Under the pieces are notes generated by a model, which worked only from the letters and a program-made list of their open reading frames with translations, did no database searches and was not told the origin of the DNA. A stretch of 61,763 nt of DNA, counting the filler, from Vermamoeba vermiformis (taxonomy: Eukaryota): NCBI GenBank assembly GCA_045837725.1. It is 5 parts of 5 records of this genome, joined end to end, with 100 filler letters (N's around TTAATTAATTAA, not from the genome) between each part and the next. Parts side by side here need not be neighbours in the genome. Positions count along the whole stretch, not along the records: positions 50,266 to 58,758 come from JBEWZL010000231.1; 4 more parts are not named here. One strand, written 5' to 3'. A program made the position numbers and the translations under genes. Within the stretch, counting starts at the first letter, position 1. Each line of letters begins with the position of its first letter. Below, piece by piece: positions 50,266 to 54,570 of the stretch.

Positions 50266-53200
50266 CCAAACGACTTTCAGCGTCGTTCCAGCGCGGCTTT
50301 AAGATCGCGAACAAAACGCGATCAAATCTCGGTGCAGTGACCGAGATAAATTAAGGTAGATTTTTTTATCCTTCCACCATTTATAACATTATTTATCGTA
50401 ATTCAATTTTTAAATTTTCAAGTTAAAAGTAGTCTGATCCGGATCGAGCCAAGTGCTCGGATTTTATCCGGATTTATAATTAATAGCGATAAAACTATAT
50501 TAAATACATTATGCTAACACTTCAATTTTTATTTAGATTATGTTCACGGTTATTTACCGCGATCGAAAGTTCTTGTGACTTTCAGTTCGCGAGATCCCGA
50601 CCACCAATGGTCGTTTCACGGTATACTGGCCTTTTCCGTTCGTGTCCCACGGCAGGGACGATCACCGTTGCTCGCTCGTTGGTTTGGCAACTAGATGCCG
50701 AGATCGGATGCGTTGGACGCATCAGAATAATTGGTAAGTAATTTTTTATTTCTAATAATAATCAATAAGACGCAGGGAACGCGTCAATTTAAAATTTAAA
50801 ATTACGCTTGGAATGTAAATTATTGCGAATTACGGATCGAGCTTCGTGCTCGTGTAAAATTCGAATTGTTGTTTATTTTATAATTAACATAATATATTTA
50901 TCGTTATTTAATAGGCAATTTGAACGTCAGAACTTTGGTGCGAGTTTTAGATCGAGAGCGAGTCCGATCTCTCGATTCCCAGTAATGAATCCAACGTAAG
51001 TAGTTTAAATAATTTATTTTATTATTTTTTAATAGTCTAATCCGGTTTATTTAGGCGGTACAAGTTACTCAGCACGGATCTAGATCGTCGACTTTGCGCG
51101 TTGATAATTTCCGTTTAAAGACAAAGATATTGCAGGTAAGTAAATATTAACGATTACCAAGCCAAGTAATAACGTTTTGTATTAATAGGAATACTCACAC
51201 GAACGATCGAGCCCGATGAGGCGGATCGAGAAGTACTGACTCGATCCGTTAAATTTTACTTGGCGGGGCCATTAGAGAATAAGAGTAAGTTATTTAGATT
51301 GTATAATACATTGAATAATTAATCTAATATCCTTTTATTATTTAGGTGACCCGACGCGTTGATCTAGGACTTGGCGATCTTGGTCTCGAACAAAGTACGG
51401 ATGCGGCCAACAGGTAAGTTAATTTACGCTTTAATAATTAATGTAACTAATAATTAACTCCTTGATATTATTAGAGTCAATGCATGATTGAATTAATCGT
51501 AGATCCCCGCGGGGCCCCGTTGATCCCCCGCTTCAGAAATTAATCCCGCGCGCATCGATCGCGCTACAAGTAAGTAGAACGCTTTAAATAATCATATAAT
51601 TACTTACGTATATCGTTTTTACTTCAGGTAAGAGCACGTCAGCGATTTTTTATTGTGTTGGACGCGCGATCTGACGCGAGCATTTTTATCGATTAGCAAC
51701 AAATTACAGACCCGTAAGTAGCATAAACCAATTAAACGTATATAGTAATCTAATATATTTCATCAGAGTTACTGAATTCGGTCACGCTACGGAGAAAGCG
51801 GATCCAAAACTTAATTGGATTCGCGACACGAAAAACAAATTGGAGCATTAAGGTAAGTTTATTTAAGTCCTTTGTTATTTTTATGGGTTTACTAACACCC
51901 TTTTATTAGTATTTTCAGGAGTATTTGGTTTACGTCGCCGATCCTTGAGGGCCCCGCGTTGATCCCTGGGTCAGCTCGATTGATTGCGGATAAGGTAGTT
52001 GAAACTCTATAAATATTCTAATTGACTAATTTTACTCATTATAGCGGTGGTCAGATCGAGGCAAAGTCTCGTGACGATGGAATGACGAAGAAATTTCATC
52101 CAACTAGCGCGATCCTTCAATTAATAGCACAACGCATCGATCGCACAAAAGGTAAGACAATATTCATTTAATATATTTATTTAAACGTACTAATGTTATT
52201 TTTACCAGGATTGAAGCGTTTAACAATGGTTTCGTGGATCGTGCACGCGGGATCTAACTCGGGTCAAATCTCGCGGCAGTAACGAATGAAAAGTAGTGTA
52301 AGTATATTTACGCGTTTATTAGTTACAAGTACTAACGCTAATTATTAATTTAACTAGATTGAATGAGTGAAGACATGTAGTAATGAAATCCGATCCGCAA
52401 CTTGAGCGGATGCGCGATCCTGAAATTGGCGGGGTGATTGCTTGGTAAGTATTATTTTCATGTAAATATAATTTTAAAGTATTGTTTTAATTATTGGTTC
52501 GATTACTGACTCAATTTATGCAGGGACCCTATCGGGGCTCCCGTACTTGAAAATTTTCGAAGTCCGAAGCGATCCGTCGTTCGCCAACACAGCGCATCGA
52601 TCGAGCCAAAGGTATGACCATATGATTATATATATTTGTTTAAACGTACTAATCCTATTTTTATCAGAATTGAAGCGTTTTACAATGGTTTCGTGGATCG
52701 TGTACCCGCGATCTAACTCGGGTCAAACCTCGCAGTAGAAGCGAAGGAAAAGAATGTAAGTTTATTTACGCGTTAATTAATGATAATTTCTAACGGTATA
52801 TATAACCAGATCGAGTGAAAGAAGAGATATAATAATAAAATGCGATCCGCAACTTGAGCGGATGCGCGATCCTCAAAAATTAGCAGAGCGATTACAAGGT
52901 AAGTTTTATTTGCGTAAATATAATACATAATCACTATATTAATCATTGGTTCAATTACTGACTCAATTTATGCAGGGACCCTCGCACTCCCCCGTACTGA
53001 AAATTTTCAAAGTCCAACACGATCTGTCACTTAATTACACAGCGCGTCGATCCCGCTAAAAGTAAGTAAATGATGTTTACTGAGTTAATTGTAAAGTATT
53101 AATGATATTTTTATTATAGTTGAAGCGCCGCAATTTAACTTCAAGGATCGAGAACACCCGATCTGATAGCGATGAAATCACGCAACAATAAACAATGACA

Positions 53201-54570
53201 ACAAAGTAAGTAGTATACCCCGATAGCTGTATATATATACTAACGTTTTATACTTTTAGATCGAATGAAATTACGAACGTGAAAGAGAGACGCGATCCGT
53301 AAGTTGAACGGATTCGCGAGAAGAAAATTTGTTGACGATAATTCTATGTGTAAGTTTTGTTATTTTAGTTATTAATACATATATACTAACGCGTTTATAT
53401 ATTTAGAATTACAATTTGATGTGTTCAGTAGCCGATCCGCGAGGGGCCCCGCTATCAACCAAAATTTAACGAGTATGTGAGTAAGTTACTTTGTTTACAA
53501 GCATTTAAATATCGTTACTAACTAATTTAAAGCTATTCTAGGTGTAAATTAAAGAGTTGGTGGCAACAAAGTCGTCGACGGGTTGGATCGAGCACGATCT
53601 CTTATTAAAAGATACAGGTAAGTTATTTATTAATAGTTAATAATACAATATATTAATACGTTGAATTTTTATAGGATTTGTTCTCTAAATCGTGGTAGAT
53701 TCCCCGTGTTATTTTTGGTGCCAGTCAGTTTTTCGATCTGCGCACGTAACGAACACAAATGGTTCGCAATAATTTGCACGAGGCTATTATACGATGTATA
53801 TTGTTATTGTATTAATAACCTGGCAATAAATTGGTTGGAATTGAATCCAGAAAGTCGATCTGTAAGTTTGTTGAAAATTAAATTGTTAAATTAATTAATT
53901 AATATTTGCGTGATTGTTTATATTAAAAAATAATTAATTGGTATGTTTTGATAGGTTCTATTGTTTGAATTCGAGACACGCAATCTCGATCGAAGTTAAT
54001 TTTTGACGCCCAAGAACATAACGAGTACGTATTATTGATTATTTTTAATAGTATTATTATTACTCAATTGATACTAATGTTATTCAAGTCTGAGCCGTTC
54101 AGTGAATTGGTGATTGACCACGTGGCCAACAGATCAAGCCGTTACACGAGCCTTGGCGCGAGCAAAATAAAACGTAAGTAAGAAATTACGAATCTATGCA
54201 TGCATTATTAACGATATACGGTAAAGGTTAGGGCCAGGTGTATTGTCTGTGGCAGATCCATAACTCCGCAATATGGATCTCATCAACGAGCGCGCTTAGC
54301 ATCATTCGAGCAGTTCTCATGCATATTGGATGGTAAGTACACGTACTTATAAGTAATAATTTATTTATTGAATGACATTATTACGAGTTTTACGTTCAAT
54401 CGTTTTGCGAAGAAATTTGACTCAATATTTATTTTTCTCGTTGCGTTTATTGTTCATTCTGCTCAATTTACTTTACAGACCACCACGCATTGCAGTTCGA
54501 GCAGAAATAGAACTGCTTTGCTTCGATCTGCGACATCTGACGCCCAAGTACACGAGACATCCGGCATTAA
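50266..54570 (+). ncRNA. Putative multi-exon non-coding transcript or 5' leader, about 25-30 periodic exon/intron units
   Basis: Repeated GTAAG donor / CTAA branch / YAG acceptor AT-rich introns (~55-80 nt) alternate with ~70-110 nt GATC-rich exons. Exon 52209-52297 has stops in all three frames. Confidence 0.55.

Follow-up and report, generated by a model that had tools for sequence, protein, structure and literature searches.

Mobile elements usually have few introns, and to several genome-defence systems a transcript that is spliced poorly or not at all is a sign of foreign origin. Here we describe a locus in a 61,763-nucleotide stretch of DNA from Vermamoeba vermiformis (assembly GCA_045837725.1; the whole stretch is referred to as the window), in which a gene for a recombinase-like protein, termed YR2, is preceded by a long array of short exons. 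Array and gene lie on contig D (JBEWZL010000231.1), one of the five contigs (A-E) of the window. The region is best read as a selected, heavily cis-spliced non-coding leader, with a matching trailer, of a mobile-element-like gene. Spliced non-coding leaders as such are known, and what is unusual here is the scale, a form that is conserved without its sequence, and a CGATC motif that is restricted to exons. A literature search covering titles and abstract openings retrieved no description of such arrays, which is weak evidence that none is in print.

Two kinds of RNA genes resemble the array in part. Small nucleolar RNA (snoRNA) host genes of the GAS5/UHG type have many short non-coding exons and splice signals that are conserved despite exon drift, and their functional RNAs reside in the introns. 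The array of contig D shares the many short non-coding exons, the conserved splice signals and the drifting exons. Its introns, however, are only 50-79 nt long and AT-rich, they yield no Rfam match, and the unit continues into a protein gene. Since a cmscan of 50266-58758 on both strands gave no Rfam match at E <= 1, a snoRNA or microRNA host gene was rejected. Spliced-leader (SL) RNA arrays, known from kinetoplastids and others, are made of tandem units of ~140 nt in which a short, conserved exon is followed by a GT donor; the units have no acceptor, and the exon is trans-spliced. Tandem units of similar length with a short exon and then a GT donor are also what we see on contig D. There, in contrast, each unit has a donor, a branch site and an acceptor, the exons differ from each other, and neighbouring exons are joined in cis in the presumed RNA run X6 (see below), for which reasons an SL RNA gene array was rejected as well.

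Closer in kind are mobile elements that rely on a tyrosine recombinase. Crypton DNA transposons have a single intron-containing gene of the tyrosine-recombinase type and no terminal inverted repeats, and short direct repeats have been proposed as their recombination substrates (Kojima and Jurka, 2011; PMC3212892). Contig D is similar in carrying a eukaryotic element with a single intron-containing gene for a recombinase-like protein, no terminal inverted repeats, and short direct repeats that may serve in recombination; these have the form GGTTAGGG(N2-3)CAGGTG and flank the coding sequence (CDS). Unlike a Crypton, YR2 has no Pfam match, including to DUF3504, and has chromodomain- and BAH-like parts. 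The accessible text of the Crypton paper has no occurrence of 'chromodomain' and does not mention leader arrays. The second comparison is with endogenous nimaviruses, 300-kb crustacean viral genomes whose tyrosine recombinases insert into telomere repeats, in their case (TAACC)n (PMC10871703). They too are recombinase-bearing elements flanked by telomere-type repeats, sometimes as concatemers split by short repeat tracts. The unit on contig D, by contrast, is of at least 8.5 kb, and more than half of it consists of spliced non-coding exons.

Two further systems bear on what such an array might do. In Cryptococcus, stalled spliceosomes trigger the production of small interfering RNA against transposons (Dumesic 2013, cited in PMC6643885). 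This splicing-coupled defence provides a rationale for why a mobile element could benefit from many consensus introns, and efficient splicing could thus matter to the element. In that system, however, it is the host that recognizes poorly spliced transposon RNA, and a built-up array of optimal non-coding introns is not described in the text available (PMC6643885). Retrotransposons that encode DAM-type methyltransferases combine chromodomains with a means to gain an 'active gene' mark, as a preprint reports (10.64898/2026.05.21.726589). A chromodomain-like part and a possible route to an active mark are found on contig D too, but whereas these retrotransposons encode the methyltransferase, contig D has only dense GATC sites and no enzyme.

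The leader was dissected into 24 introns ahead of the start codon. They are AT-rich, with a median length of 58 nt (range 50-79 nt), and alternate with GC-richer exons of a median length of 86 nt. A donor and an acceptor are present in every unit, and 20 of the 24 donors read GTAAGT. Of the GTAAGT copies in 50266-54570, 21 are on the + strand and a single one is on the - strand, whereas 500 shuffles averaged 1.6 copies and never exceeded 6; one of the 21 copies, at 53299, falls within an exon, and the other 20 are the donors of leader introns. The median acceptor spacing is 144 bp (period ~145 bp), and the GC power spectrum of the leader peaks at 148.4 and 143.5 bp, with 38.7 and 28.8 times the mean power. 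A three-module super-repeat occupies the middle of the array, and two of its parts (52128-52677 and 52588-53127) are 77.5% identical over 555 bp in blastn. Outside 52128-53127 the units have no similarity to one another that blastn detects. Neutral decay would have erased the donors, so that the retention of GTAAGT in 20 of 24 introns among such dissimilar units points to selection. Since the array begins at the first base of contig D, its 5' side is truncated.

Most of this anatomy had been noticed in an earlier note that was made from the sequence alone, and it held up. All 17 acceptors listed there are YAG, with a mean spacing of 145.6 bp, and the introns are of the described kind, AT-rich with GT donors that mostly read GTAAG, and keep ACTAAC branch sites in the alignments. 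The super-repeat, put at ~450 bp, measures ~455 bp, the recursive-type CAG/GTAAG at 51625 is present, the power spectrum confirms the periodicity, and splice signals are indeed kept while the rest diverges. Two features were not in that note: the array resumes 3' of the CDS (57649-58354), and GATC is enriched about 3-fold, in exons only. Introner-type mobile introns were considered separately and rejected, as near-identical dispersed copies were not found: when contig D was compared by blastn with every contig and locus, only the internal super-repeat and one coding match appeared.

The earlier note had also seen no long spliced open reading frame (ORF), and none exists. The spliced leader has a length of 2182 nt and contains 34-39 stops per frame. 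Eleven of 23 leader exons are closed in all three frames, the longest stop-free reading across all exon-skipping paths is 636 nt, and the exons have nearly uniform lengths that are not divisible by three. ATG is depleted, with 27 copies in the spliced leader versus 42.4 +/- 4.5 expected, a number as low as in none of 500 shuffles. The exons as a set are not unusually structured either. Short hairpins occur in some of them, and several have inverted repeats of 6-8 bp around spacers of 7-9 bp, including one palindrome with a compensatory change (CCGC/GCGG to CCGT/ACGG). When folding was compared to that of shuffled sequences, though, the mean z was -0.25, and only 2 of 23 exons fell below -2.

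Paralogous modules show what has been retained. Their exons are 79% and their introns 80% identical, and three-way alignments of the super-repeat modules (A4, A5) keep donors, ACTAAC branch sites, acceptors and GATC-containing blocks. GATC is the top over-represented 4-mer of the leader exons (43 copies versus 14.1 expected, mostly as CGATCY), where it reaches 20.7 per kb, and it is absent from the leader introns. Each of the 23 exons examined contains one to three copies, the position of which varies within the exon. CGATC or GATCG is found at 11.4 per kb in the leader, at 0.32 in the YR2 CDS, and at 1.5-4.1 in the other contigs of the window. On the + strand of the leader, hexamer counts give 29 CGATC and 20 GATCG, which is no clear strand bias. 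The observed/expected ratio of CpG is 1.60 in leader exons and 0.89 in the CDS. Besides the splice signals, the exonic CGATC/GATC motif is the only thing kept.

Part of this GATC richness is a trait of the genome, since DNA outside ORFs is also mildly enriched on contigs A, B, C and E (126 copies versus 77.7 expected). Such a background of ~1.6-fold explains only part of the ~3-fold enrichment in leader exons and was rejected as a full account. Elsewhere in the window, GATC clusters such as CGATCGAGATCGGATCC...AGATCTAGATCT occur at 36390-36440, within an ordinary intron.

Relatives of YR2 were found as four loci (L001-L004) in a scan of metagenome contigs, whereas scans of genome contigs and viral contigs found none. 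One element type is represented by L002-L004, which are copies of it, and a second by L001. Their proteins are 31-33% identical to YR2 and share intron positions around exon 9. Upstream of the L002 CDS lies a region of 4.8 kb with 19 copies of GTAAG, all of them on the sense strand (shuffle mean 5.3). The GC content of this leader oscillates every 130.4 bp, with 73.7 times the mean power, a periodicity that the L002 CDS lacks, and its tandem units align at offsets of 131 bp. CGATC or GATCG is present at 8.2 per kb in the L002 leader and at 1.0 per kb in its CDS, and GCGAT is invariant in eight of eight aligned units. The consensus helix of these units is weak (-2.96 kcal/mol, with an unfavourable covariation term), suggesting that they keep the sequence motif and not the helix; exon hairpins as a class were therefore rejected on the grounds of this helix and of the mean folding z. 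Blastn detects no nucleotide similarity between the arrays of contig D and L002, so the architecture has been kept, or rebuilt, while the unit sequence turned over. The same layout in distant relatives argues that the array is probably functional. Similar arrays beside other YR homologues, for which the earlier note had suggested a search, are thus found at L002 and, in a shorter form, at L001, but not at YR1 (see below). Within L002, positions 1-451 and 3517-3972 are an 87.6% direct repeat of mini-exon modules, located upstream of and within the leader.

Evidence for splicing comes from run X6, which stems from another organism and is presumed to be RNA, a guess on our part; its contigs are 95-100% like the window and have a depth of 2-6. 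In eight places they join exons exactly across a predicted GT..AG intron; three of these introns belong to the leader, four to the CDS and one to the trailer (see the table). One contig departs from the window exactly at the donor at 50355, and a 151-nt contig in which 54233-54331 is joined to 54479 onward is the closest link between array and CDS. X6 contigs also have loose ends at 52838/52869 and 57805/57887, indicating that parts of the unit recur in other transcripts. The most abundant one (depth ~14) agrees with the window at 57805-57887 and differs from it to either side of this segment. With the reservation that X6 is only presumed RNA, we take it as good evidence for transcription and cis-splicing of near-identical copies, including their leader. 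Three RNA-seq runs, whose species label is that of the best DNA match, gave 4, 9 and 17 reads of ~13 million records each, all of them partial fits that are 95-99% alike and derive from paralogues.

The account that we favour starts from these data, and we put it close to, though short of, an even chance as a whole. The region would form the 5' portion of a single long transcription unit on the + strand, in which at least 25 mini-exons are cis-spliced into YR2, more mini-exons following after the stop, and then the TTAGGG repeats of the contig end. The array has grown by tandem duplication of exon-intron modules, after which exons and introns drifted equally, with selection acting on splice signals and exonic CGATC/GATC only. 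The element probably resides in subtelomeric chromatin, and its reader-like domains suggest that it is targeted to repressed chromatin. Having many optimal introns might cause its transcript to be treated as an efficiently spliced, host-type RNA polymerase II RNA and not as an intron-poor or badly spliced target of defence. The CGATC sites might be the target of a sequence-specific factor that acts on DNA or RNA, through binding or methylation. Adenine methylation is one possibility, an idea that we take from the preprint on transposon-borne Dam-type enzymes (10.64898/2026.05.21.726589). The first of three options in the earlier note, a heavily spliced non-coding RNA or leader that makes the element look like a host gene, is similar. 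A non-coding, multiply spliced sense-strand leader is borne out by the X6 joints and the arrays of the relatives, whereas a role in licensing expression or in escaping silencing is something that we, too, infer.

Several points weigh against this account. The earlier note had looked to RNA for splicing and for continuity into the YR2 CDS, and while splicing was seen at eight introns, no single record in X6 chains the array to the start codon. X6 is only presumed RNA, with a depth of 2-6, and its joints may also reflect intron-less DNA copies. The few partial reads in the three RNA-seq runs mean that the window copy is not detectably expressed there. A full-length leader, in which 27 upstream ATGs remain, would serve scanning ribosomes poorly as a 5' untranslated region (UTR), and the start of the coding mRNA may lie closer to the CDS. 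Introns 3' of a stop codon normally provoke nonsense-mediated decay. YR1, a distant YR2 paralogue (29-33% identity) on the - strand of contig A (~4600-1608), lacks a mini-exon array, its leader holding just two introns. Moreover, the link between splicing and silencing would have to be assumed for this organism, and the CGATC motif is not predicted by the idea that introns license the transcript.

An extended form of the favoured account, which we consider quite doubtful, sees the array as an expandable module device of a recombinase element that targets telomere repeats. Its dozens of consensus introns would load the spliceosome and junction complexes and so license the transcript as 'self', and CGATC would recruit an adenine-methylation or boundary factor, so as to form an island resembling an active gene in subtelomeric heterochromatin. 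Equally doubtful parts of the same proposal are that the chromodomain- and BAH-like parts direct the element to this heterochromatin, and that the transcript runs in the direction of telomeric repeat-containing RNA (TERRA), into the TTAGGG strand. Whatever the mechanism, an element family with more than half of its length in optimally spliced non-coding exons would be a natural test case of whether splicing itself protects a transcript from silencing. It also bears on the role of dense CGATC sites in eukaryotic chromatin, and, with its location at short TTAGGG junctions, the YR2 family would extend the telomere-associated elements known so far by one that relies on a recombinase.

Alternatively, the array could work mainly as DNA, with CGATC as partly palindromic sites, either accessory or arm-type sites for the element's own recombinase or sites for a host boundary or methylation factor. 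We judge this unlikely, as we do its corollary that sites placed between promoter and CDS forced the AT-rich spacers to become efficient introns. It would fit that CGATC is the sole exon feature kept in both contig D and L002, shows no clear strand bias, and is accompanied by exonic inverted repeats, one of which has a compensatory change, and by a CpG ratio well above that of the CDS. Transposons that encode Dam-type adenine methyltransferases and exploit N6-methyladenine chromatin (10.64898/2026.05.21.726589) would provide a precedent. However, a methyltransferase was not found on contig D, the position of GATC is not fixed within exons, better candidate recombination sites exist elsewhere (57846-57893 and the GCTGTCC copies at 58385-58676), and the accessible text of the same preprint reports ApT methylation with no occurrence of GATC.

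Less likely still is that the array is a neutral by-product, in which unequal crossing-over in an unstable subtelomere multiplied an exon-intron module of the UTR and the splice sites were kept because a retained AT-rich intron harms the mRNA. Tandem duplication is evident, exons drift as fast as introns, and the exon set has no special RNA structure, all of which this would explain. It would not account for arrays of ~20 or more modules in at least two lineages with ~32% protein identity, which differ in unit sequence and period. Furthermore, CGATC enrichment and ATG depletion require selection, and carrying 2 kb of leader with many upstream ATGs should come at a cost.

The other two options of the earlier note did not survive. 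It is very improbable that the array is processed into small RNAs or into guide RNAs for the recombinase. Short hairpins in some exons and the recurrence of unit parts in other transcripts would be in line with it, but folding is unremarkable, Rfam gave no match, and L002 keeps the motif and not the helix. A nucleosome-phasing or centromere-like array for episome maintenance, suggested by the alternation of GC and AT with a period near 146 bp, deserves scarcely any credence: the period in L002 is 130 bp, neither period leaves room for a linker next to a nucleosome, nothing points to an episome, and exon plus intron lengths explain the periodicity. Its monomers are not homogenised, and a satellite, centromere-like or nucleosome-positioning array was rejected because the 455-bp unit occurs in only ~2.7 copies at 77% identity and the period, 144-148 bp on contig D, is no more than 130 bp in L002. 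A decayed protein-coding gene or an unrecognised coding splice path, for which nothing speaks beyond the presence of exons, is hardly credible in view of the stops in all frames, the closed exons, the 636-nt best path and the near-uniform exon lengths.

The predicted product of YR2 has ~855 residues after splicing and is collinear with P0004, an 849-residue protein on a 3.5-kb contig of the Joint Genome Institute. Depending on whether the last intron is retained or spliced, the stop is at 57602-57604 or at 57660-57662. At 56466-56473 the window has GGG where an X6 contig has GG, and exon 10, the last large exon, is consequently out of frame; the extra G is the mark of a pseudogene copy or else an error in the assembly of a homopolymer. 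The family is rare, with 11 cluster representatives among 1.84 billion proteins. Word-indexed protein searches with exon 6 ('longer' lengths) gave no match, and with residues 150-640 of P0004 they recovered solely P0004 itself.

The assignment implied by the name YR2, a tyrosine recombinase, is reasonable but not proven, and it is based on motifs. In P0004 these are GGQ-R420-R421-E, L-R524-R525, H549 and Y564, and H549 and Y564 are invariant in the family alignment (A3). The order and spacing of the conserved motifs GGQRRE, LRR, HAxLINTS and YNR are as expected for the R, R, H and Y of tyrosine recombinases, and the distances of ~104, 24 and 15 residues are similar to those in XerD and Cre. 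The RR and HAxLINTS...Y blocks are also present in YR1-type proteins. The His of HxxR, on the other hand, is not conserved. While the label given by the earlier note is thus plausible, no model or fold match confirmed it. Pfam searches with five exon translations and seven family proteins found no recombinase model at E <= 0.1-1, DUF3504 included, PHROGs gave no relevant match, and hhalign of A3 against P1 Cre returned a probability of 0.8%. The best NCBIfam match, TIGR02224 (XerC), is below significance (E 0.034, 13.5 bits versus a cut-off of 335); it aligns P0004 residues 456-531 to profile positions 174-249, where the catalytic lysine and HxxR would sit. An Atlas feature search produced leads only, an 'EsV-1-213-like' cluster (0.94) and a cluster with 15% PF00589 members (0.94).

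Profile searches of A3 against the PDB matched the BAH region of DNMT1 (E 7e-4) and the HP1-type chromodomains of CBX5 and CBX1 (E 0.009-0.03), in each case with modest E-values and in the C-terminal half of the protein. These matches point, with modest strength, to chromodomain- and BAH-like parts. An AlphaFold2 model built on A3, which is a shallow alignment, has a mean predicted local distance difference test score (pLDDT) of 42.3 and a predicted template modelling score of 0.25. Only residues 610-660 reach a pLDDT of ~80, and three strands and a helix are modelled at 613-663.

Short TTAGGG tracts mark junctions. Contigs A and D end in two to three such repeats, contig A having two at both ends in the same orientation, and the TTAGGGTTAGGGTT at the end of contig D could be a genuine telomere or else a short internal junction of the kind seen in L002, where the tract TTTTAGGGTTAGGGTT lies at 1143-1158. 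L001 1-136 and L002 1007-1142 are 98.5% identical and diverge exactly at the start of this tract; past the breakpoint, the two loci belong to different element types. The YR2 CDS is bracketed by the paralogous exons with GGTTAGGG(N2-3)CAGGTG, which are direct repeats and may be recombination junctions. A local alignment of 54164-54387 with 57608-57804 scores 57, compared to 33.8 +/- 5.8 (maximum 54) for shuffles. The inverted repeat at 57846-57893 is a candidate core site for the recombinase: its 9-6-9 pattern has one match where 0.06 are expected, its arms are arranged in a way that resembles lox or FRT, and the most abundant X6 contig leaves the window within it, at 57887. The GCTGTCC copies near the contig end are candidate subterminal protein-binding repeats, as only two others occur on the + strand of the entire window (61.7 kb). 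Taken together, TTAGGG junctions and border motifs would fit recombination at telomere-like core sites, in analogy to the telomere-inserting recombinases of endogenous nimaviruses (PMC10871703). A sequence 3' of the L002 stop codon (~7991), GGCTGTCTGAGGCCGTTAGGCC, resembles window positions 58383-58410.

Table 1. Coordinates of contigs and features in the window; positions count along the whole window.
Feature	Position	Strand	Description
Contig A	1-9300		
Contig B	9401-39374		
Contig C	39475-50165		
Contig D	50266-58758		holds mini-exon array and YR2
Contig E	58859-61763		
Linkers	9301-9400, 39375-39474, 50166-50265, 58759-58858		
Non-coding leader array	50266-54571	+	24 introns, ~25 short exons; truncated at contig start
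Recursive-type site	51620-51633	+	putative; acceptor then GTAAGA (CAG/GTAAGA at 51625-51633)
Super-repeat, ~455 bp	52045-53349	+	three exon-intron modules (A, B, C), ~2.7 copies
X6 joints, leader	52445-52523, 52612-52667, 54333-54478	+	
GTTAGGGCCAGGTG	54227-54243	+	start of second-last leader exon; paralogous to 57677 site
YR2 CDS	54572-57662	+	10-11 coding exons; recombinase-like, chromodomain- and BAH-like protein
X6 joints, CDS	55241-55287, 55785-55832, 56229-56278, 56479-56528	+	
Trailer	57649-58354	+	five to six more short non-coding exons, GTAAGT introns, 3' of stop
GGGTTAGGGATCAGGTG	57677-57696	+	second copy of telomere-like exon motif, directly after stop codon
Inverted repeat	57846-57893	+	perfect 9-6-9 ATGTCAGAA-ATTCCA-TTCTGACAT (57846-57869), then two further arm copies
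X6 joint, 3' of stop	58064-58124	+	
GCTGTCC, six exact copies	58385-58676	+	three as GCTGTCC-N5-ATAATG, ahead of terminal TTAGGG
TTAGGGTTAGGGTT	58745-58758	+	end of contig D

The five contigs of the window are not one molecule. They are merely joined by linkers of the form N44-TTAATTAATTAA-N44, and features on either side of a linker are therefore not physically linked. The spliceosomal introns of genes throughout the window are short and AT-rich, with donors that read GTAAGT and branch sites of the ACTAAC type, and Pfam detects LRR, lysyl oxidase and BTB domains on the other contigs; introns and domains together indicate a eukaryotic source. Apart from the BTB domain on contig E, several ORFs of contigs A and E and a 149-residue open frame on the - strand of L002 (1084-1533) have no Pfam family. 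Contig C terminates in 35 TTAGGG repeats, and an ORF with a lysyl oxidase domain (48581-50165 region, Pfam E 1.3e-32) ends ~50 bp ahead of them, so that a gene abuts a telomere. On contig A, several + strand ORFs without a Pfam family are found upstream of YR1, and tandem repeats of 20-43 bp that are based on AATTCGCATGACTTG are located near the left end of the contig (484-898).

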